Source: a virus
Lineage: Duplodnaviria > Caudoviricetes
Length of the DNA stretch: 64,000 nt
Reading direction: 5' to 3' (one strand)
Virus record (IMG/VR): IMGVR_UViG_3300026549_000043
Location: 32,001-96,000 of that record
Shown here: piece by piece, positions 10,059-64,000 of the stretch
Numbering within the stretch: position 1 is the first letter of the stretch
How the letters are laid out: each line of letters starts with the position of its first letter
The notes under the pieces: generated by a model
The model's input: only the letters and a program-made list of their open reading frames with translations
Database searches by the model: none
What the model was told of the DNA's origin: nothing
Position numbers and translations under genes: made by a program

Positions 10059-10222
10059 TGGAAAAGAATGATAAAGAAAAAGTGATACCATCTAAGCCTG
10101 ATAAAAATGGATGGTTCAGGTGTCAGGTTTGTAATCAGATGGTAGGGAATGATAATTATTGTAAGAATTGTGGTCAGAGGTTAAAAGATGGATCTTGGAA
10201 AAAAATTCGAAGCTTTTTTTAA
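10058..10222 (+). CDS. Small zinc-ribbon protein (54 aa; not in ORF track)
   Basis: CQVC...CKNCGQ; TAATG coupling to upstream gene. Confidence 0.65.
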   Translation: MEKNDKEKVIPSKPDKNGWFRCQVCNQMVGNDNYCKNCGQRLKDGSWKKIRSFF

Positions 10223-10655
10223 AAAAAATTGGATAGATACTGTACCAGAATCATTTATTTATAGATTAAATGACCAGATGTCTGGTTATATGGGTTCAAG
10301 CAATATTAGTGATTTTATTTGTTATAAAAAGCCTGAGTTATTTTTAATTGAGTGTAAGGCCCACGCCGGGAATACATTCCCCTTCTCAGCTTTTAGGCAA
10401 TATGAGGATCTTTCTCACTGATCTGACTTAGAAGGAGTTCATCCTGGAGTAATATTATGGCTATATGACCATGATGTTATCCTTTGAATACCAATAAAAA
10501 CTTTTATGAAATTAAAATCAGAAGATAAAAAATCTTTTAATATAAAATATTTAGGTAACCCAGATTATGAAAATGTTATAATTCCAACAAAGAAATTAAG
10601 GACTTTCTTGGATGGTGATTATTCAGTTTTAATAGATTATTATAAGGAGAAGTAA
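10188..10655 (+). CDS. recU: RecU-like Holliday junction resolvase (2 in-frame TGA)
   Basis: GKKFE, SDF, IECK motifs; reading TGA at 10419 and 10485 as Trp extends the frame to TAA 10655, abutting the next ATG at 10656. Confidence 0.8.
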
Positions 10656-15365: not shown

Positions 15366-15463
15366 ACCTCGGTCTTACTGTCCGGTGACAGGAACGGTCT
15401 TCAAAATCGTAGGACACGGGTCCAACCGTGTTTATGAGGGCTCGACACCTTCCCGAGGTGCCA
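15366..15463 (+). tRNA. tRNA with UCA anticodon, Sec-like architecture (opal decoder)
   Basis: Acceptor ACCTCGG/CCGAGGT + G + CCA; D arm CTGTC-CGGT-GACAG; anticodon arm ACGGT-CTTCAAA-ATCGT; long variable arm ACACGG/CCGTGT; T arm GAGGG-CTCGACA-CCTTC; 98 nt. Confidence 0.85.
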
Positions 15464-16952: not shown

Positions 16953-17026
16953 GCCGGATTAGTATAAAAGTATTACACCTGTCTTGTAAACAGGATAAAG
17001 CGGGGCAGTACCGTTATCCGGCCCCA
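16953..17026 (+). tRNA. tRNA-Thr(TGT)
   Basis: GCCGGAT/ATCCGGC + C + CCA; CCTGT-CTTGTAA-ACAGG; atypical T loop GGCAGTA. Confidence 0.85.
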
Positions 17027-22603: not shown

Positions 22604-23428
22604 ATGAACCCATTATTTAAAAAGCCTAAAGACGTCCGATTTGTAGATATGGCTATATGAATTGATAACAATATTTATAAAGAAGATTGTGATATGGATA
22701 AGGCATTTACTTACATGTATTTATTGGCCTATATGTTAGCTAGTAAAGCTAAGTATTTTAATACTATTGCTGACTATGATGGCTTTGCCTATTTCTTGGC
22801 CTACTCAACTTATAGTAGGTATAAGGATCAAAGTAAGAAGCCGGTAAAATCGGTATTAAATTATATGAAATCAATTATGTATTTCAGAAAGTTAACTTAT
22901 GACCGGGAAACATTCTGTGAAGTAATAAACCCAGAATATAATACTAATTGGGATGAAAATAAATATAAAAATAGTAGAATTAATTCCTTAGAATCTCAGA
23001 ATAGAACAAATTTAATTCAATTAAGTATTCAAGACATTTTTAGTGATATACCAAAAATAATTTTTAAAAATATACCAAAGATATATTTTAGTGATAATTT
23101 AATTAAAAATAATATTTATAAATCTACCCTATTATCACTATTAAGCAGCTATACATTACCACAAGAATTTCAAATAAAATTACAGAAAAAGTTAGAAGAA
23201 AAATCAACTTTTGATGAAGCTTCTTTCTATAAAAAACATTTAACCAAGGATATAATTTTATGACATTTACCAGATTCAATGGAATCAGTAGTCAGGCTGG
23301 TTATAAATAAAACGAACCAAGACTTAATTGAATTAATTCGAGGATTATCTGATGAAATAAAGGTTACTGAATATGATTTAGATCTAATGTTTAAATCGGC
23401 TTATGAGAATTGAAATGAAGAGTCCTAA
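22604..23428 (+). CDS. Helical protein, possibly a phage sigma-like factor (3 in-frame TGA)
   Basis: Continuous frame through TGA at 22658, 23261 and 23411; weak similarity to the gp55-type pattern. Confidence 0.45.
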
Positions 23429-25379: not shown

Positions 25380-26093
25380 ATGGTAAAAGACATATTGGTT
25401 TCAGACCTTTTAAATGAAAGGGCTATGGAGTGGGATGTTAAGAAGGATTCAGAATTAACTAATACTATCCTTAGAGACTTGGTTGATACTCTAGAAGCTA
25501 ACCCAGATAGATTATATTTATGTGCTAATGAAATCGGATATACTGAGAGAGCTTTTATTTTAAAGTTTAGTGATGATTGAAAAGCTTTCATGAACCCAAT
25601 CTTCCAGGTAAAGGATAATCTAAAATTAGTTAGAGAATATAATCCTATAGATAAAAAACAATATATTATTCCTAGATATACCGATGTGACTATATGCTAT
25701 CAAAATTCCATGGGTAAAGTTGAAGCTGTAAAATTTAATGATTCAGCATCAGCTATAGTGTCTCATGCAATGGATGTTTTGGAAGGGTTACAAACTTCTG
25801 ATTATGGATTAGAAGTCGTTGAGGAATTTGATACCGCTTCGCCAGAAGAACAGGCCCAGGTATTGAATGAATATTTAAAATCTTTAAATAAATTTAAAGA
25901 AGATTTGGATTCTGATTTAAGTAATTCTGATGAGGAAACTAAAAAAGAATGGGATGGCTTTAAATTTATGAAAGCCGTTTCGGATGGAAAGGTAGAATTA
26001 TATAAGCCAGAAAATAAATCTCCAATAATAAATAGAAAACAAAGAAGATTTTTTGAAAAATTGGCTAAAAAATTTAGAAGGAGAAAAAGATAA
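25380..26093 (+). CDS. Peptide deformylase-fold protein with degenerate active site (1 in-frame TGA)
   Basis: DLVDTL...LCANEIG...FMNP...IPRY..VT..Y...G......F...A..VSHAMDVLEG follows the PDF pattern; ORFs 25380 and 25590 are in frame across TGA 25578. Confidence 0.7.
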
Positions 26094-28927: not shown

Positions 28928-29776
28928 ATGGGTAAAATTTATACTTATATTCATAAAGGTCAACAGAATAGTAAATGTAAAACAGTTGACCTTTGTTTAT
29001 TTCTTAATGATGGATGAGAACTTGGTTGACCAAATATTCATGATCACATGGTTAAAATGAGTAAGAAAGCCGCTGAAAAATTAAGTGATTTGAAAGAAAA
29101 TAATTATGAAGATTATGTAAAATTCCAAGAAAATAAAAGTAAAAATGTGTCTAAAGGTTTACTTAAATTTTGATCAGATGTTGCAGATAAAGAGTATATA
29201 AAAAATCGTGAGGAAAAGAAGCAAGAATCGAGAGATAATTGAACACCTGAAGAGCGTGAATTATATCATAATAGGATGTCTGAATCAGCCAAAAGGGATA
29301 GGGCAAATACATCCCAAGAAGAGTATCATAGAAGAAGTGTTTTAGCTACTGAAACGAAGAAGAGAAACGGTACTATGAACACATCATCCTATGAAAATAT
29401 TACATATGATTTATTAAGAACAATTTATGGTGATGATGATATCATCTATGATGATTATGTAGATGATAGATACTCAACAAAATGCGATTTCTATATCAAA
29501 TCATTAGATATATTTATTGAATTAAATATTCATCCATCTCATAATAATCACCCGTTTGATGAGAATAATGCGGATGATTTAAGTTTAGTAGAAGAATTAA
29601 AATCTAAAGGTGATAAATGATCGAACATGATTTTAGATGTTTGATGTAGACGTGATGTCGAGAAATTCAATCAAGCTAAAGATAATAAATTGAATTATAT
29701 CTTAGTGTATCCAAATAACTTTGATAATTTTATACTCGCAATAAAGGAGAATAGAATATGAGATTTAGTGAAATAA
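28928..29776 (+). mobile_element. Free-standing homing endonuclease, Vsr/PD-(D/E)xK-like (7 in-frame TGA)
   Basis: Continuous frame with TGA=Trp; S.YE...CDFYI....FIELN..H motif; NDGWELG motif; lies between the nrdD halves. Confidence 0.8.
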
Positions 29777-36400: not shown

Positions 36401-38022
36401 TTTCTTGGCTTATAGATAAGGCTCAGGAAAAATTGATTGATAGAGAAATCACCGGTGCTGAAATGACTTTTATTAAGAGTCTAATTGAAGAATGGAGAAA
36501 TGAATAGTTTATAAACCTATATAAAGAATTATATAATATAAATATAATAAAAGAGGTAATAATTATGAACAGTATGTACTTTGGTAAAAAAGAATTAGAA
36601 GCTATGTATGAATTGATTCGTTTCTTAAATGAACAGTCATATAAGTCTGAGTATTATAATGATGTTCATATTTTCCCAGCTGATTTAGGAGCTTTTGTTG
36701 TAGAATGGGCTCAAGTACCCTGGGATCATACTTATGGTGGCAGCTTTAGGTATGTAGATGAGAATCAAACTGTATGTACTGAATTGAAATATCCAGATGA
36801 TACCTTCGGTTATGTCGAAGATCCTGGAGAAGCCTTAAATGAGTGGCTAGAAGAGAATCCGGGCTGGACCAAAGATGAATGGGGATATTGGCATCATGAA
36901 TAGAGAAGAACTCTTAAAAAGAGGCTATACTGAATTTGGTGGTAAAGATACAGGTAATGTACGTACTAGTATGTTCCAGAAGCGTATTGATGATCAAAAA
37001 GGTAAGAAGTATTTTATTACCGTAACGTATAGTATCTTTAACATTAATGGAAAATCATTTGAAAGCTTTGAATGTGAAACTCAATTCAATAATAGGGTCG
37101 GCACGAAGAATATTGTTTGGTTGTCTGTTGAAGATATAGATAAAGTAGAAGAAGAAGCCGAGCTACTCTGGAATGTTCTAAAAGGAGAATATTATGAAGA
37201 ATATTATGAAGATTTTTAATTCTAAAGACTATAGCTTAGAAATGTCGCCTTTAAAAGAAGGTATTGACTTTTACTACACTTTCCATTATGTCTTTAATGG
37301 AAATAAGTTATGTTTCGTATTAGCCGATACTTATGAAAAGGATTATACTAATAACCCTTGTAAGTCAAAGAAGTGGAATAGATATAATCGTTTAAGAAAG
37401 TCCCTAAGACCATTCTGGGACACTAATAAGCCGGAATCATTAGAAGAAAGAGTTGAAGAACTGATTAAAGACAAAGAAGAAATAGAAAAAGAGCTTAAGG
37501 AGGATTAATATGGGATTAGACTTTACAATTTATAAGAAGAAAGTAAATGAAACTTGTGAACAGGCTTGGAATGCTATAGTTAGTGAATGGCGTGAATCAG
37601 GTTATACTACTACCTCTGAAAGAGAGTTAGCCTATGGTCGTAAAAGCTGGGAATTAGTCTATGAATTAGTACCAGATTATGGAGACTATTTTGATTCTGA
37701 TGACCCAATCATTTCTAAAGAAAGATGGGATTCTTTAATGAATAAAATCTCGGAAATTGGCCCTAAGCTTGATAAGATCTGGGATGCTTTTAATAAAGAA
37801 GAAAAGGCCCCGGATGATTATCCTGAATTTATCTTTGGTGACGAAGAAAAGAAGCTTATTGCTGAGTATGAATACTGGTATGATAAGACTTTCGATGTAG
37901 CCCCAACTTTAGGATATTTCTTCTCTGTGGGTTATATTATGGATTTCTGGAATGCCAATGACCGTGTTCAGAAAGTTTTTGAAGACCCAGAGTGGGAAGT
38001 TAGAGCGAGCGTGAGCTATTAG
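30470..38022 (+). other. Array of ~30 short, translationally coupled accessory ORFs (e.g. 30470, 30681, 31303, 31595, 31781, 32225, 32478, 32716, 32998, 33389, 33609, 33985, 34349, 34785, 34987, 35276, 35508, 35984, 36259, 36565, 36896, 37510)
   Basis: Overlapping stop/start codons; promoters at 30405, 31991 and 36505; repeated MRLIDAD...PTVKAIPIEW...WEKENE family. Confidence 0.75.
32465..35520 (+). repeat. Dispersed junction repeat TGGGAGAAAGAAAATGAGACTAATTGA
   Basis: Copies at 32465, 33376, 33596, 34336, 34772 and 35495; 33375-33410 and 33595-33630 are identical over 36 nt. Confidence 0.85.
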
Positions 38023-38762
38023 TGAAGTATTTTATTGTAGCTGATGTTCATGGTTTCTATAATGAAATGATTGAAGCCCTTGAAAAAGAGGGCTTTGATA
38101 AGACTAACCCTAATCATACTTTTGTCTCCTTAGGTGACTTATTAGATAGAGGTGAACAACCCAAGGAATGCTTAAAGTTTGTTAACAGTCTTGAAAGAAA
38201 GATCTTAATCGTAGGGAATCATGAACTCTTAATGGATGAAATGGCCGAAAGAGGTTACCCCAGAGATTATGATTTTAAAAATGGTACTCTCAATACGGCC
38301 AGGATCCTAACCAATACTAAGCCAGATGAGATCTGCTCAAATATGAAAGATAATGAACTTTATCAGACATACCGTAAAGAATGCAAGTTTTATCATGAGG
38401 TTGGAGACCATATCTTTGTTCATGGTTGAATTCCTTGCATCTATGCTGGAAAGTACAGTATTACTCCTGTAGCTTATAAGAAAGATTGGAGAGATGCTCC
38501 TTTAGTAGAATGGATTGACTCAACCTGGATCAATGGTATGTTAGCCTGGGCTGCAAAAATAAGAGAACCTGGAAAGACAATCTGGTGTGGACATTGGCAT
38601 ACTTCTTATGGCCATGCTAATTTACATAACTATGGAGTTGAGTTTCCGCACGAAAAAGGTGAAGAGGCACATTTCTCCCCTTTCATAGATGAAGGGATTG
38701 TAGCTATGGATGCTTGTACTGCCTATTCAAAAAAAGTTAATTGTAAGGTCATAGAAATTTAG
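38022..38762 (+). CDS. Metallophosphoesterase, Ser/Thr phosphatase-like (1 in-frame TGA)
   Basis: DVHG, GDLLDRG, GNHE, FVHG(TGA)IP, GHWH, D.C.AYS. Confidence 0.88.
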
Positions 38763-43266: not shown

Positions 43267-43962
43267 ATGACCAAAAATGAATTATTAAAACTTGATTGTT
43301 TTTATGACAACGAATATTTACAACAATATGTAGATTTAGTTAATTCTAATATCAACACTGAGTATCAAAGTGGAATTACTGAATGCCATCATATTATCCC
43401 TAAGGTTTATTTTAAATATAAAAAGTTAGAAGTTGATAATAGTAATAGTAATTTAGTTAATCTAATTTATTGTGACCATGTATTAGCTCATTGTTTGTTA
43501 GCCTTGTCCTATAAAGATAAATATCTAATTTCAGCTAGTATAGATGGAGTATATGGAGTTTTAAATAGTTTTAATATTTATAAAACTTTAGAAGAATTCG
43601 TGAAAGATTTTCCTGAAGTTAAAGATATTTTAAAATGTAATCATTTTGTATCAGACGAGCAAAAGAAAAAATTATCTAAAATAAGCTCTAATTCAAATTG
43701 ATATAATAATGGGATAAAAGAAACTTTTACTATATATAAACCTATTGGTGACGAATGAATACCTGGTCGATTACCCTTTTCTGAGAAACAAAAAGAAAAA
43801 TTCAGAAATAACAGTTTAAAATGTCATTGGTATAATGATGGTAATAAAAGTGTTTTCGCTAAAGAATGCCCACCTGGTTTTATTCCTGGAAGAATAGTTA
43901 CTGATAAATTATTGGCTTCTAATAAAAGAAATGCTCAAAAAAGAAGAAAAAAGATAAAATAA
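43267..43962 (+). mobile_element. Free-standing HNH homing endonuclease (2 in-frame TGA)
   Basis: ECHHIIPK...NLVNL...HVLAH; C-terminal repeats (TGA)YNNG...(TGA)IPGR and WYNDG...FIPGR. Confidence 0.85.
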
Positions 43963-46062: not shown

Positions 46063-47163
46063 ATGAATAATTATTATAAAGTTTATTCTGAATTAAAGAA
46101 GTTGTCTTTATTAGAAGACCTTAAAAATAAGCTAACTGAGGAAATTATTTTACCTAATGTTATTAGTTCACCTTATGAAAAAAGAGCTAGAGTCCTTTCA
46201 AATGGGCATAAATATACTTTAGGTCCTTTAAATTCTGGTGATATTAATAAACTAGTAACTAGATTTAAAAATAAAATTAGAGAGTTTTCCAGAGACCCAG
46301 AAAAAACAACTGAAGAAAAGATTGCTGAATTTCGTAGAATAATTAATTCTCCATTAGATTCTAATTCTCCAGGTAGTACTCCAGCAGGGAAATTCTACCA
46401 TAATGCATTAAATAGTTTTGGTGGATATCCTGGAGGAGTAAATAGTCATTTATTCATCTCACCTGGAGATTATCCTGAATTTGATAAGTATTTTTTAAGT
46501 TTAATTAGAGACGCTATTGAAAAATTAGAAAATAATCAAATTAATCCAGCTACTGCTAAATTTACATTAACTCCAGAAGAAGAAGCTACTTCAAACAGAC
46601 TTATTTCCTATTTTGATAATAATGGATTTACTAATGTTTTAGGACCTATTAAATCAAAAAAGCATCCTGGTTTCTATATTTATACGGCCAGGAAAGATAT
46701 TGATAAAGATATCTTAGACTATGGAAATGAAGATTATTTTGAAATTGGTGATAATTTTGAAAGAATTAGTTCAGGTGATAAACTAAATTATAGGAGTTTA
46801 GTTTACATAAAAGAAATAGCTGATATTTTAGGGGTTAAGCCATTTGCTATGACTGATGACTGGCAACCATTAATTTCAACTGATGCTGACTCATTGGACA
46901 TTGATAAACCTGATAGAAGTTATTTTACCATTAGAGTTGAAGCTCCTTTAACAGCTGAGGGTGTTTCAAAAATTACCAAATCTTTAAAGAAAAATATTGA
47001 AGATTACGAAGAACCATTAGGTGATTTTAAAATTAAAAAGACAGACTATTATGATTACCTAAAGTATAAGGATAATCTTGGTAAAGAAAATAATGGCCAG
47101 TACATTTCTTCTTCAGATTTTACTCCAATGGAATATATGAGAGAAAAAGAAAACAATAAATAA
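46063..47163 (+). CDS. Putative late/virion-associated protein
   Basis: TGCTAAATT upstream (46027); N-terminal LLED/LTEE motifs. Confidence 0.5.
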   Translation: MNNYYKVYSELKKLSLLEDLKNKLTEEIILPNVISSPYEKRARVLSNGHKYTLGPLNSGDINKLVTRFKNKIREFSRDPEKTTEEKIAEFRRIINSPLDSNSPGSTPAGKFYHNALNSFGGYPGGVNSHLFISPGDYPEFDKYFLSLIRDAIEKLENNQINPATAKFTLTPEEEATSNRLISYFDNNGFTNVLGPIKSKKHPGFYIYTARKDIDKDILDYGNEDYFEIGDNFERISSGDKLNYRSLVYIKEIADILGVKPFAMTDDWQPLISTDADSLDIDKPDRSYFTIRVEAPLTAEGVSKITKSLKKNIEDYEEPLGDFKIKKTDYYDYLKYKDNLGKENNGQYISSSDFTPMEYMREKENNK

Positions 47164-47287: not shown

Positions 47288-47758
47288 ATGCCATTTATTA
47301 AAAGATTAAACAAACACCAACTACATTTTGAAGACCTAGTTCTATTAGGGCCAGAAGGGTTAGAAGAATTAAATGATAAAATAGAGGGTACTATCGAAAC
47401 TTTAGAAAATAATTCAGAAAGGATTAATCTTACTACTAAGATTGATGGTTGTTTAGCTCCTGAAACACTAGTAGCTACAACAGAGGGTGATACTGCTTTT
47501 AGTAAGATAATATCTGACTATAATAAAGGTAAGGTATATTATGGTTATGGAGTTAATGATTCAACTGGAGAAATTATACCAGTTGAACTTAAAATGCCAA
47601 GAGTTAAAAACGGTAATAAAAATTGGTGCACAATAGAATTTAATAATGGTGGTTATTTAACTGCTACAGTAGACCACCCAATAAAAGTTGATGATGATTA
47701 TGTTGAAGCCGGTAAGCTGGAAGTGACTACAAAAATAGAGGGTATCGATCATTTTTAG
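47288..47758 (+). CDS. N-extein (54 aa, ending TTKIDG) fused to N-terminal split intein (102 aa)
   Basis: Intein block A CLAPETLV at 47450; block B LTATVDHP. Confidence 0.9.
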   Translation: MPFIKRLNKHQLHFEDLVLLGPEGLEELNDKIEGTIETLENNSERINLTTKIDGCLAPETLVATTEGDTAFSKIISDYNKGKVYYGYGVNDSTGEIIPVELKMPRVKNGNKNWCTIEFNNGGYLTATVDHPIKVDDDYVEAGKLEVTTKIEGIDHF

Positions 47759-47800
47759 TTTTATTGTTGCTAAATTAATTATAAAATTAAGGAGGCAAAT

Positions 47801-48661
47801 ATGGCTAATAATAATAAATCTTTAACCACCCGTAAATTAGAATATGATAAAATTGTTGAATTTAGAAAATTACATAGTATCGACTATCTAAATAATATAG
47901 CTAAGTTAATGGGTTATACAACAATATCAGAGGTATTTGATGATGGTTGGCCTATAACAGAACTAAAAAAATATAGTGATGAAGCCAGTAAATTAACTTG
48001 AGGGGCTGATATTCCAAATAGATATTGAAAATTTATGTGTAGAGAAGTTTGTAATGAATATTTAACTGAAAAATATGGGTCACCTAAAGATTACTTCAAT
48101 ACAGAAGTTTTTATTAAACGGAGAGTAACAAATATAGGTAACACTATGGAAACTAGGTATGGGTATAGAAATCCTGGCCAATCACCTGAACACCGTGAAC
48201 TTATGAAAAAGGGAAGTAATTGTAAAAATCCCTTTTCATCTGACTCTTTTAAATATAATTCATATATTCGTGGTAAAACGGTATTGCCAGAAGATAAAAT
48301 AGCATATGATGAATATAGAAAAAAGGTTGATAAGCTCACAGATATAAATAAACAAAATTTACCTTTTACAGGTATATGCTATTATACAGAATTACCTATT
48401 TTTAAATATGATGGTAATAAAACAATTAATAGAAATGATTGGAATATGGCTACAATAGATCATAAAATTTCTGTTATAGCTGGTTTTTTAAGAGGTATTT
48501 CTCCTGAAATTATTTCTAGTGTAGATAATTTATGTTGATGCTCAAAGTATTTTAATAGTTTCAAGGGTTCCAAATGTGAAGATGAAATTAGGCTGTCAGG
48601 TCTGATCGAACGATTTAAGGAGGTTATTAAAAAATACTATGCAAGTAGTGAAGGTGACTAA
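47801..48661 (+). mobile_element. Free-standing HNH endonuclease between the split-intein halves (3 in-frame TGA)
   Basis: CYYT...TIDHKIS...NLC(TGA)CS..FNS.KG; ORFs 47801 and 48035 share a frame. Confidence 0.85.
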
Positions 48662-51600
48662 ATTAAAGACAAAATTTCCCCAGTGTGATCTCACAACTGA
48701 TACAGAAAACTTTTATGTAAAAGTTGGTGACAAATACATTTTAGTACATAATTCCCCAGCTTTAATAGTATGGCATGAATATCCAGGCTACCCAAATGAT
48801 TCAGTAGCTCTAAAGGGTTTTCTTTCTGGACCACAAAATGCTATTTCTACTCCAGAACAAGTAGATGCTAAGTATGGTGATAGACCAGGAATGTCTCAGA
48901 TGTTGAAGTATGGATTACAAATAGCCAAAGAGATTCCTTCTGGTGAAGCTTGGCAGGGTGATTGCTTGTTTGTAAAAGATACCAAGAGGGAAGAAGAAAT
49001 TAATGGTAAAGATTACATTACATTCCAGCCTAATAAGATTATCTATGCTTTTTCTGAAGATAATCCTGGGTATGAAAAAGTAAAGAATGCAGATTTTGGA
49101 ATTGCTTTCCATACTATTTATACAGGTGAAGATAAGCATCAATCTTTTAAAGTAGATCCTTCAAAATTAAATGTTCCAGATAATATTTATATTATGTCTC
49201 CAACCTTAAATAGACCAAAAGATGTAAAGGTATTTAATTTGGATGGGGTTAAATCTCAATTTGATAAACTTCAGAATTTAGAACAAAAATTATTATCCAG
49301 TTTTGAATACGAAGATTTAGTTAATAATCAGGTATTCATGAAATACTGGAATACTTTTGAAAATGCTAATTTAGCTGATAAAAAATCTGTTACTATTAAT
49401 GAAAATACTTTTATTAATGATTTAAAAGAATACATCAAAGATAAGAGAACAAAAGAATTTGAAACCCAGGTTGGTAAATTAAAGACTGATGCTGGGAAAG
49501 AAAAAGCTAAAACTAAGTATGAACAAGATTTAGAAGACTTACGAGAATTAATTGATCACAATAAAGATTTACTTACTACACTAGTACAGACTCTTAATTG
49601 TGCTGCTACAATTAAAATGTTATTATGGCAAGGATTTAAACAAACACAATTTGACTATAATACTTTCTATCGTTCTAGAACTAAAGGTTATATTCCAGGT
49701 GAAATGGAAGGTGTAGCCATGAGTGACCAAGACGGTAATATTGTTAAGATCGTAGACCGTAGTACTTTTAGTTCTTATAATCGTGATCCCGATATCCTAG
49801 CGGGGTTCGATCACCCTGAAAATCTTACCGAAGAACAATCTTGTTTTATTGAAAAATATAATAAAGAATTAAGTGAATGTGAGACTAAACAACTTTGGGA
49901 AAGATTTGGTAGATTATTAGAAGATGACCAAAGAACTGTTGTATTAGCTTTCGGGAGACTTAATCCCCCTACCTGGGGTCATCGTAAATTAGTAGATAAG
50001 ATGGCATCACTAGCTCAGAGTGAAAAGGCAAAGTTATTCTTAAGTCATACACAGGATAAGAAAAAGAACCCTTTAAGCTATGAAGATAAAATTCATTTTG
50101 CCAAAGAAGCTTTTGAACCTCAGATAGATGTCGTTAAGTCAGATGCAAGGACAATCATTGAAGTCTTAACCGATCTTTATAAAGAAGGGGTAAAGAACAT
50201 CATCTATGTTGGTGGAGAAGATCGTATTGGTGGAAAAGAAGATGTCTCTGACTTGATCCTAAGATATAATGGCCAACCAGATAAGCAAGGTAACATTCTA
50301 TACGATTTTGATTCAATTCAATTTAAGAACGCTGGATCTAGATCAGATGACTCAGATGACTTTGTAGAAAGAGCTTCAGCAAGCTTAGCAAGAAAGTATG
50401 CCCAGGAGGGTGACTTTAAACACTTTAGTGAAATAGTCCCATTCAGTGATGCTGATGCCAAAGAACTTTATAAAAAGGTTAGATCTGGATTGGGTCTTAG
50501 TGATGAAATATTAACCGAAGCCAATTTTAGTTACCCAGATATCCTTAAAACAAACCATAGCTATTATCTTGATGTAGTCGATGATTTTTTAAGTGATGGT
50601 GTTGTTGGTGCTGATAATAATATATATAAGATAAAACCTACTCAAGATGCAGAAGAAGTTAAAAACGAATTAATTTCTATTAAAGAATTAGTTGGTAAAA
50701 ATAACCAAGAATTTAATAAAAAGTTTAAGGATATAACTGGTGTTGAATGGACTAAAATTTATAAGGGTAAATATTCTGGTCATACAAATGGACAATCATC
50801 AGGTGAAGCAGCCGAGGCAGTAGTATCTTATTTATATAATAATCCGGGAAAGGATCTCCCAGATGGAGTAGAGATCTCTGATAAATGGATTACCTCTTCT
50901 AAAAATATTGCTAATTTTTTAGAAAATATTTGGCCACATGAAAATTATTTTGCTATCCATGTTAATGGTAATGATTTAGAACCTATTGGAGAATATAAGA
51001 ATATTGGTAAATTATTTAAATCTAAAAAAGAAGCTGCCTCTGTTTTAGGATTAAAAAATGAACTAGATGATTTATATGTAGGTGGAAAAGATACCTGGAA
51101 TAAAGCTGATATTTTATTAGTTAAAAAAGGTGCTCCTATATTAAAGTACTTTGAAAATATTAAAAATAGCTCTGATTATAATGAAAGGATAAATCAACTA
51201 GCTTCAGGGGATTCACCTTTATTAATCCCAGTGTCATTAAAGGGTGTTTCAAATAGAACAAACTTAACTGTTGTCCCAGAAGGATTTGATGCTGGTGAAG
51301 TCTTACATGCTAAAGATATAAAAGTAGTATTCCCAATAAAACCATTAGAGCCTGAAACTAATAATTGTAGTTGTTGGTTAATAGATAATCTGGGTAGAAG
51401 AATACAATTTAGAAGACAAACAGATACTGAAGATAATCTTAGTGTTGAAGTGTCATTGAATAAAGATTCTCGTGGAGGTAAGGGTATTACCAGATTGAAG
51501 AAAGAACTAGGATTGTCTAATAATGAATGGTATAAAACTCCTATAACTTCTGAGAATGAATTATATAGCAAACTTAGAAACCTAGGTGAATTATCAAAAC

Positions 51601-51788
51601 CTAGTGATAATTTTATAAACGGTAATACTTCAGGTGAATACGCTTGGTATAATAGAACTTGTTTTAGAGGAATTACTTCTTTATTTGAAGAATATCAAAA
51701 TAAATTTGGTGGCAGTAATTTAGAATTTTTTGATTGGATATATGAAAATAGTACCATTGGTACCAGTGGATTTTATTTAGTTTATTAA
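48639..51788 (+). CDS. C-terminal split intein (38 aa) fused to a multidomain protein: KxDG ligase-like (DUF6267-like) domain, HxGH cytidylyltransferase-like domain and putative nuclease-like C-terminus
   Basis: DLTT..ENFYV...LVHN/S; WQGD, FQPN, EGVA..IVKIVDR; FGRLNPPTWGH, SAS; WNKADI...VSLK. Confidence 0.8.
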   Translation: MQVVKVTKLKTKFPQCDLTTDTENFYVKVGDKYILVHNSPALIVWHEYPGYPNDSVALKGFLSGPQNAISTPEQVDAKYGDRPGMSQMLKYGLQIAKEIPSGEAWQGDCLFVKDTKREEEINGKDYITFQPNKIIYAFSEDNPGYEKVKNADFGIAFHTIYTGEDKHQSFKVDPSKLNVPDNIYIMSPTLNRPKDVKVFNLDGVKSQFDKLQNLEQKLLSSFEYEDLVNNQVFMKYWNTFENANLADKKSVTINENTFINDLKEYIKDKRTKEFETQVGKLKTDAGKEKAKTKYEQDLEDLRELIDHNKDLLTTLVQTLNCAATIKMLLWQGFKQTQFDYNTFYRSRTKGYIPGEMEGVAMSDQDGNIVKIVDRSTFSSYNRDPDILAGFDHPENLTEEQSCFIEKYNKELSECETKQLWERFGRLLEDDQRTVVLAFGRLNPPTWGHRKLVDKMASLAQSEKAKLFLSHTQDKKKNPLSYEDKIHFAKEAFEPQIDVVKSDARTIIEVLTDLYKEGVKNIIYVGGEDRIGGKEDVSDLILRYNGQPDKQGNILYDFDSIQFKNAGSRSDDSDDFVERASASLARKYAQEGDFKHFSEIVPFSDADAKELYKKVRSGLGLSDEILTEANFSYPDILKTNHSYYLDVVDDFLSDGVVGADNNIYKIKPTQDAEEVKNELISIKELVGKNNQEFNKKFKDITGVEWTKIYKGKYSGHTNGQSSGEAAEAVVSYLYNNPGKDLPDGVEISDKWITSSKNIANFLENIWPHENYFAIHVNGNDLEPIGEYKNIGKLFKSKKEAASVLGLKNELDDLYVGGKDTWNKADILLVKKGAPILKYFENIKNSSDYNERINQLASGDSPLLIPVSLKGVSNRTNLTVVPEGFDAGEVLHAKDIKVVFPIKPLEPETNNCSCWLIDNLGRRIQFRRQTDTEDNLSVEVSLNKDSRGGKGITRLKKELGLSNNEWYKTPITSENELYSKLRNLGELSKPSDNFINGNTSGEYAWYNRTCFRGITSLFEEYQNKFGGSNLEFFDWIYENSTIGTSGFYLVY

Positions 51789-63123: not shown

Positions 63124-64000
63124 ATGAAATTAAAGGTTAAGAGACCAAAGAAATTGGTAGAATCAACTATTAATGAAGCTACCCTAGAAGATACTATTAA
63201 CGCTGCTGAAAAACAAATTGAAAACCCAGAAGTAGCTAGTTATAATTCTACTGGCCAGATTGAACAGGCTTTAGATAGAGCCCTCAAGGTTGCTGAGAGA
63301 ATGAAAAGAACTGGTGGTAATAACTATACTAATGTTTTACTTATTGGTGGTGCTGGTACTGGTAAAACTTCAGCAGTAAGAGACTGAGCTGCAGCTCATA
63401 ATATCAACTTAGTTATGCAAAACACTTCAACAATGGATGAAACAGACCTTACAGGTGTAGTAGCTAGAAGTGCTGAAGGAAACTCAACGGTTAAATTAAG
63501 ATCCGACGTTTTAAGAGGATTGAATGAACCTAGATCAGTATTATTTTTAGATGAATATAATAGAGGTAGAAGCTCAGTTAGAGGAACATTATTAACTTTA
63601 ATTAATGACCATTTAATTGATACTGGTACAGACCAGGAATCAAATATTAAGGGATTATCTGGTAAATTAGAATTAAAGAATATGTTATTTACCATTGCTG
63701 CTATTAACCCGGCTTCAGGTGAATATACTACAGATGAATTAGACCCTGCCGAAATTTCTCGTTTTAGAAGAATTGAAGTTAAGGCTGATAAAAAACATCT
63801 ATTAAATAATGTTTTAATTCCAAAGCTTACAAAACAGGCAGAAAATGGTACTGAAGAAGACCAGGAAATTATTGCCGGACAGATTAACCTAGCAACTAAG
63901 CTTTTATCTGATAAATCATTCCAGTTTGATAATGAAGAAGAAGAAAGACTTGGTTATCAGAAATTCGGAAGAGATTATACTCCATTAAGTCCAAGATCAT
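63124..64000 (+). CDS. MoxR-like AAA+ ATPase (1 in-frame TGA; 3'-truncated by window)
   Basis: GGAGTGKT, then after TGA 63385: LFLDEYNR, AAINP, LDPAEISRF. Confidence 0.85.

Follow-up and report, generated by a model that had tools for sequence, protein, structure and literature searches.

Phage genes fractured by split inteins have been known since 2009, when Dassa et al. described gp41-1, gp41-8, NrdJ-1, IMPDH-1, and NrdA-2 (PMC2677866). In three of these systems, NrdJ-1, IMPDH-1, and NrdA-2, an acidic N-terminal intein half (IntN) is paired with a basic C-terminal half (IntC) (PMC2677866). The nucleases found in the fractured genes of that study were GIY-YIG and Vsr-like only, with HNH nucleases predicted and unobserved (PMC2677866). 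Here we describe a fractured gene of this class in a cattle-rumen phage whose relatives are T4-like phages. The DNA analysed, hereafter the window, is a 64-kb stretch corresponding to bases 32001-96000 of a 139,874-bp IMG/VR viral contig, with a G+C content of 30%. The gene encodes a protein of the family DUF6267, a new host family not known to host inteins, and its two fragments are separated by a nuclease gene. We consider it very likely that a class-1 mini-intein entered a three-part phage enzyme and was itself split by the gene of a free-standing HNH homing endonuclease.

A first-pass annotation had placed a natural split intein at a KxDG motif of this gene. All of its numbers hold, including the coordinates, lengths, motifs, and a predicted spliced product of 1065 aa (54 + 1011). 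IntN and IntC lie on separate open reading frames (ORFs), each with its own Shine-Dalgarno sequence (SD) and ATG, and the endonuclease gene lies between them (Table 1). The first 23 nt of the IntC ORF overlap the end of the nuclease gene. The Pfam profile of DUF6267 is shared out over both fragments and breaks at position 48, indicating that a single domain has been interrupted. The two intein halves carry opposite net charges, -6 for IntN and +2 for IntC. The hairpin over the nuclease SD has a folding energy of -11.2 kcal/mol (z -1.9), and 8 of 200 shuffled sequences fold equally well; as signs of regulation, the hairpin and the promoter-like element before the nuclease gene are suggestive only. 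No notable RNA structure was found before IntC and no terminator within the locus.

Table 1. Coordinates of the fractured gene, its parts, and the genes that bear on the decoding of TGA, numbered from the first base of the window
Feature	Position	Strand	Description and support
N-fragment ORF	47288-47758	+	156 aa: 54-aa N-extein and 102-aa IntN
N-extein	47288-47449	+	54 aa; DUF6267 N-terminus, ending in motif I TTKIDG (putative catalytic Lys51); Pfam DUF6267 profile 1-48
IntN	47450-47758	+	102 aa; Cys1, blocks A (CLAPETLV) and B (TVDH), TAG stop; aligns with 13 other split N-fragments
Spacer	47759-47800	+	42 nt; T4-late-promoter-like TATAAAAT (47780-47787), SD TAAGGAGG (47788-47795), weak hairpin over the SD; sequence and fold
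Predicted free-standing HNH-type (His-Me finger) endonuclease gene	47801-48661	+	286 aa; catalytic domain about 163-277 (48287-48631); homologues and model
SD of C-fragment	48616-48624	+	TAAGGAGGT, inside the nuclease gene, 5' of the ATG; sequence
C-fragment ORF	48639-51788	+	1049 aa: 38-aa IntC and 1011-aa C-extein
IntC	48639-48752	+	38 aa; blocks F (QCDLTT) and G (ILVHN); alignable from its first residue onward to the C-terminal portion of the contiguous P0015 intein
C-extein, part 1	48753-49781	+	Rest of DUF6267 from Ser+1 (SPALIVW); motifs QGDCLF, EG, KIVDR; Pfam DUF6267 79-371, E 3.9e-30
C-extein, part 2	49863-50522	+	Cytidylyltransferase-like HxGH nucleotidyltransferase, motif TWGH; phrog_3041 E 3.6e-43, phrog_395 E 7.3e-36, Pfam CTP_transf_like E 3.3e-4
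C-extein, part 3	50523-51788	+	C-terminal domain, not conserved among close relatives; no Pfam match
Genes bearing on in-frame TGA	38022-38762, 25380-26093, 63124-63999, 10188-10655, 43267-43962, 28928-29776, 22604-23428		

The site without the intein is preserved in relatives of this phage. In L086, a near-identical rumen relative, the gene is uninterrupted and reads KIDG-APALIVWHEYPGYP (in other excerpts, KIDGAPALIVWHEYPGYP and TTKIDGAPALIVWHEYPGYP), with AAAATTGATGGA directly joined to GCACCTGCTTTA at the DNA level. Alignment to L086, whose flanking DNA is 93-97% identical, places an insert of 1303 bp exactly between Gly54 and the +1 codon; at the protein level the junction differs by the insert plus Ser replacing Ala at +1. 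Identity of the N-extein to that of L086 is 96% for the protein and 93-97% for the DNA; its identity to that of L004, a related rumen contig in which one ORF of 1170 aa reads TTKIDGAPAVICW without interruption, is 84%. Ten further rumen relatives (L087-L096) read KIDG[A/S]PAV contiguously, and cyanophage P-HM2 and phage C48C1 read KWDGAPA, also uninterrupted. These relatives agree with the earlier proposal that intein-less homologues would read KxDG-[S/A]P. DUF6267 is likewise uninterrupted, and annotated as hypothetical, in all of 150 cultured-phage records. Several differences from L086, most of them synonymous, stand beside the insertion (47436-47449 and 48753-48758): ACT/ACC, AAG/AAA, and GGT/GGA on the left, TCC/GCA (Ser/Ala) and CCA/CCT on the right. 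Co-conversion would account for them, as would loss of the nuclease target, the numbers being too small for a test.

The canonical splicing residues attributed to the two halves are all present, namely Cys1, the TxxH motif (TVDH), the block-F Asp (QCDLTT), the terminal HN (ILVHN), and Ser+1 at the start of SPALIV. Conservation holds across 14 aligned split N-fragments and six contiguous alleles, down to ~30% identity. An exhaustive search of representative proteins returned 269 relatives of the N-fragment (best E 5.6e-37). A motif script sorted the best 150 of these 269 into 52 split N-fragment clusters, each ending ~100 aa past Cys1, five contiguous alleles with a 135-137-aa insert that ends in HN followed by SPA, and 32 intein-less proteins; a sixth contiguous allele, P0076, was used in the alignment though unclassified by the script. 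The end point of the window's IntN matches the end of the 13 other aligned split N-fragments. Against the contiguous-allele profile the N-fragment scores E 4.4e-25 (hhalign), and IntC matches a profile made from contiguous alleles only at E 2.5e-19. The contiguous-allele profile itself matches the NrdJ-1 intein (E 7.9e-13), as well as an intein-C-terminal-domain protein, a BIL domain, and the DnaE, DnaX, and gp41-1 inteins. Pfam Intein_splicing is matched by three of the six contiguous alleles (best E 2e-4). In the AlphaFold2 (AF2) model of the contiguous allele P0015 (predicted local distance difference test, pLDDT, 79), residues 62-201 superimpose on NrdJ-1 (PDB 8ubs) with a VIA Z of 19.6 and a root-mean-square deviation (rmsd) of 1.8 A over 135 residues, followed in rank by ~30 other inteins. 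Foldseek gives E 1e-5 and a template modelling (TM) score of 0.78 for the same pair. The exact empty site and the homology to contiguous inteins at the same site bear out the proposed split intein at KxDG: the fractured gene holds a genuine, naturally split intein, in an arrangement far beyond chance.

Several observations weigh on the other side. Pfam intein models give no match to either half alone, phmmer of the N-fragment and IntC against the PDB is not significant (the best match being a BIL domain, E 0.5), and the HINT structure was modelled on the homologue P0015, not on the window's own halves. With the halves unrecognised in these sequence searches, the HINT identity rests on the allelic contiguous inteins. 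No read joint that skips the cassette, as an empty site would give, appeared in the runs containing this phage. The distance from the SD to the ATG of the C-fragment is long, at 14 nt. For the middle gene, no Pfam HNH model matches and the fold match is middling (Z 7.1).

As we infer splicing from sequence, the intein halves might serve as a docking device only, through which the two fragments would assemble non-covalently, with no peptide bond formed, to give an active enzyme; the chemistry of splicing would in that case have been lost or have no bearing. A working enzyme from a fractured gene is indeed known without an intein, in the split NrdA of phage Aeh1 (PMC2677866). We nevertheless regard docking as unlikely. 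A module that served for docking alone would not be expected to retain Cys1, the TxxH His, the terminal HN, and the +1 Ser throughout the 14 split and six contiguous alleles, down to ~30% identity. At +1 the window has Ser where the nearest empty allele has Ala, in line with what splicing requires. Moreover, the break falls inside active-site motif I, where a 140-aa appendage would probably interfere.

A second account holds that the insertion inactivated DUF6267 and that the N-fragment, the truncated nuclease ORFs, and the C-fragment are remnants of a decaying gene. The middle gene does contain three stops under genetic code table 11, and its 167-aa ORF is without the last part of the HNH motif. 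However, this phage uses TGA as a sense codon, as described below from the domains that cross it and a UCA tRNA, and all three TGA sites are Trp in homologues. The locus has no frameshifts, its exteins are 93-97% identical to the intact relative L086, the layout is kept in a distant phage, L097, and split N-fragments recur in the 52 clusters found among the best 150 of 269 relatives. Decay is very improbable in our view. Finally, we rejected as hardly credible a long cis-splicing intein in which the endonuclease is an internal domain and read-through or frameshifting yields one continuous chain: the N-fragment and the nuclease do share a frame (2 mod 3 for both 47288 and 47801) and a contiguous intein with a putative HNH domain occurs at another place in the genome, but the TAG at 47756 and an in-frame TAA 12 nt beyond it (47771-47773), both true stops in this phage, separate IntN from the nuclease and make read-through not possible, the spacer has a strong SD and an ATG, the nuclease and IntC lie in different frames with the 23-nt overlap, and the N-fragments of the same 52 clusters stop at the same point.

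The reading that we prefer, a mini-intein in a phage enzyme split in turn by an HNH nuclease gene, suggests the following course. A host gene for a DUF6267 RNA-ligase-like nucleotidyltransferase, a cytidylyltransferase, and a variable C-terminal domain would have been invaded by a mini-intein directly after the Gly of KxDG, with two residues between this Gly and the presumed catalytic Lys51. The intein would have been split at the canonical endonuclease-insertion site by the nuclease gene. Three proteins would then be made, the N-extein with the acidic IntN (156 aa), the endonuclease (286 aa, with TGA read as Trp), and the basic IntC with the C-extein (1049 aa). IntN and IntC would associate and trans-splice, giving the 1065-aa protein that reads KIDG-SPAL, and only this spliced product would hold a complete active site. 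In relatives infecting the same cell, the endonuclease would cleave alleles that have no intein, L086 offering an example, and repair of the break would carry the entire 1.3-kb cassette across.

Judged by its homologues, the split intein is not a one-off and belongs to a large, previously unremarked metagenomic family. In L097, a 47-kb contig with the standard code whose N-fragment is only 26% identical to the window's, the N-fragment is followed by a nuclease of 214 aa that belongs to the family of the window's nuclease (E 2e-12), and then by a 38-aa IntC that starts from the equivalent Met. The overlap between nuclease and IntC is 23 nt, the same as in the window. This shared three-gene layout and overlap indicate that the composite is old and conserved. 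Among 80 IMG/VR loci that carry a member of this nuclease family, a convincing intein neighbour was found in none but the window's own, and the family appears to be mostly free-standing elsewhere. A related-locus search with P0008 as query gave no match. The public runs with the locus are bovine-gut metagenomes and metatranscriptomes. The identical allele is also present in contigs from an independent bovine-gut DNA study and from two RNA libraries, the latter not being proof of transcription. Megablast of the locus against GenBank phages gave no match, and a tblastn search of 50,697 phage records with the N-fragment found none at E 0.1, which implies that no sequenced isolate carries this intein. 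No mention of DUF6267 or of a split intein at KxDG was found in the literature searched.

Other split and contiguous inteins were seen alongside this family. In P0030, P0032, P0061, P0062, P0080, and P0096, the split N-fragments are 320-615 aa long and carry an extra domain ahead of the DUF6267 N-terminus, indicating that the order of domains in the module varies between phages. The phage of the window has a second, contiguous intein outside the window (L098:309-2459; genome C1:2608-4758), located in a 716-aa protein and inserted between SCSCPDW and C..RFSYW (Pfam Intein_splicing E 1.1e-19). Its motif IAIHHIDFNKKNN suggests an embedded classical HNH domain. Considered with the window cassette, it means that the contiguous state with an inner nuclease and the split state with a free nuclease coexist in one genome. 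In L005:997-3556 (IMGVR_UViG_3300032038_000802), the terminase large subunit is fractured, with the junctions DLTHS to CLVGDTTV and VVSHN to CDSL.

The middle gene had been called HNH in the first-pass annotation. Fold and motif support its HNH nature; its extent, however, is 47801-48661 and not the 167-aa table-11 ORF at 48035-48538, as the actual gene requires TGA to be read as Trp. Under table 11 it falls into pieces of 66 and 167 aa, and with TGA as Trp it is a single ORF of 286 aa. The in-frame TGA codons are at 47999-48001, 48026-48028, and 48536-48538. Five homologues (59-70% identity) have W at all three positions, one of which is within the motif NLCWCSKYFNSFK. The motif DHK...NLC...N..K is conserved among homologues, with D220-H221, N243, and N252 invariant. 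The nuclease is matched by phrog_1035, 'endonuclease VII' (E 3e-5), and a distant homologue carries DUF7487. Residues 163-277 of its AF2 model (pLDDT 78) align with the Gme HNH nicking endonuclease (4h9d) at a VIA Z of 7.1 and an rmsd of 4.3 A over 90/97 residues. The next structures are T5 SciA, Cas9 HNH domains, PacI, McrA, and Cap5, and almost all of the further matches are HNH nucleases. Foldseek with the same model returned none at E <= 0.001, and a profile of the nuclease family had no match among PDB sequences. Taken together, the fold and motif give moderate but consistent support for a predicted HNH-type nuclease.

The use of TGA as a sense codon extends beyond the nuclease. Metallophos, Pep_deformylase, AAA_5, and RecU-like domains run across in-frame TGA in this phage, and the repeat copies of an HNH gene at 43267 read N-TGA-YNNG and H-TGG-YNDG. 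Most core genes are without TGA and end in TAA or TAG. At 15366-15459, shortly before tRNA-Trp(CCA), Rfam places a selenocysteine-tRNA-like gene whose anticodon is UCA; its score of 39.3 bits is below the gathering score of 47. A third tRNA (anticodon UGU) was found with Rfam at 16953-17023; neither of the two was reported by ARAGORN. The intein-bearing halves have zero TGA codons and the nuclease has three, one inside the HNH motif, raising the possibility that the selfish cassette is wired into the genetic-code switch of the phage, so that full-length nuclease would be made only while the UGA-reading tRNA of the phage is active. We hold this idea tentatively and rather doubt it. If true, DNA cutting would be confined to a defined stage of infection and the host enzyme would be trans-spliced regardless. 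The cassette would then be an old composite mobile unit, with the same 23-nt overlap in standard-code and recoded phages.

Conservation of DUF6267 extends over T4-like cyanophages, pelagiphages, and rumen phages. Its conserved motifs are KxDG, QGDxLF, EG, and KxVDR, with K51, D53, and G54 nearly invariant. The non-intein part of the P0015 model (531 residues, containing the intein) matches the RNA ligase structures 5cot (Z 6.7), 1xdn (Z 5.6), and T4 Rnl2 2hvq (Z 5.5) over 176-193 residues; no RNA ligase match was found for the extein at the sequence level. These three ligases and the motifs lend moderate support to the earlier description of the extein as ligase-like, and DUF6267 may be a covalent nucleotidyltransferase resembling RNA ligases. 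Inteins favour indispensable active-site motifs. The insertion right after KxDG would mark DUF6267 as a real lysine-nucleotidyl enzyme. The accompanying label of putative virion protein had no supporting match and is dropped; the fractured gene lies among genes for topoisomerase II subunits and for nucleotide salvage and nucleotide metabolism. We also considered whether the Felix-O1-like 'DNA ligase' locus of Dassa et al. is the same gene. This is unlikely, with no Felix-like DUF6267 matches among the 150 phage records.

The remaining parts of the C-extein are less uniform. In cyanophages, the cytidylyltransferase is a separate adjacent gene. For the C-terminal domain, there is an Atlas lead only, to restriction-endonuclease-like families (score 0.89), and a pairwise comparison with the gene upstream in L097 was non-significant (E 0.12). 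The C-terminal third of the protein (50500-51788) is swapped among close relatives, giving proteins of 1065, 968, and 1170 aa in the window, L086, and L004, respectively, and DNA identity to L086 falls from ~90% to ~50% after some 1.7 kb. Upstream, a 366-aa gene (46063-47163) stands between a topoisomerase subunit gene and the fractured gene. The topoisomerase subunit and DUF6267 genes abut in L004, and the 366-aa gene therefore looks inserted.

Our results describe a new split-intein family of ~100 + 38 aa with Ser at +1, whose identity to NrdJ-1 is only ~25%. Its diverged natural variants, at least 52 in number, plus contiguous and empty alleles of one site, make up a series on how inteins become split. 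The variants are also a pool of possibly orthogonal trans-splicing pairs, with possible use in protein engineering. The presence of a free-standing endonuclease of HNH type in a fractured gene would widen the nuclease repertoire of the class.

Compared with the systems of Dassa et al., the locus has the same order on one strand of N-extein and IntN, endonuclease, and IntC and C-extein, the same phage origin, and an insertion at a catalytic motif (PMC2677866). It also shares the split at the canonical endonuclease-insertion site, with a hairpin and a late-promoter-like element before the nuclease gene (PMC2677866). It differs in its host, a DUF6267-cytidylyltransferase that is outside the eight host types listed there, the locus entered as 'unknown function upstream of nrdB' not being compared (PMC2677866), and in its source, the rumen, whereas theirs was ocean or lake. 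The split intein of L005 is similar in being a natural split phage intein with an HNH gene between its halves, and its IntN shares 38% identity with P0006, one of the N-fragment alleles in the window's family. Unlike the window, its host is the terminase large subunit, and its HNH gene is on the opposite strand with a classical HH...N...H motif. The extein, like the domains of T4 Rnl2, Naegleria RNA ligase, and trypanosome REL1, has the KxDG motif I and downstream ligase-like motifs, and the P0015 extein aligns with them; unlike them, DUF6267 is linked to a cytidylyltransferase, and the Z values are middling. Among solved intein structures, that of NrdJ-1 (8ubs) is nearest to the allelic contiguous intein. 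Identity to it is 24-26%, its host is a ribonucleotide reductase, and the window halves alone have no significant sequence match to it. However, the two are similar in size and in the charge polarity of their fragments, with the window's IntN acidic and its IntC basic, as in NrdJ-1 (PMC2677866).

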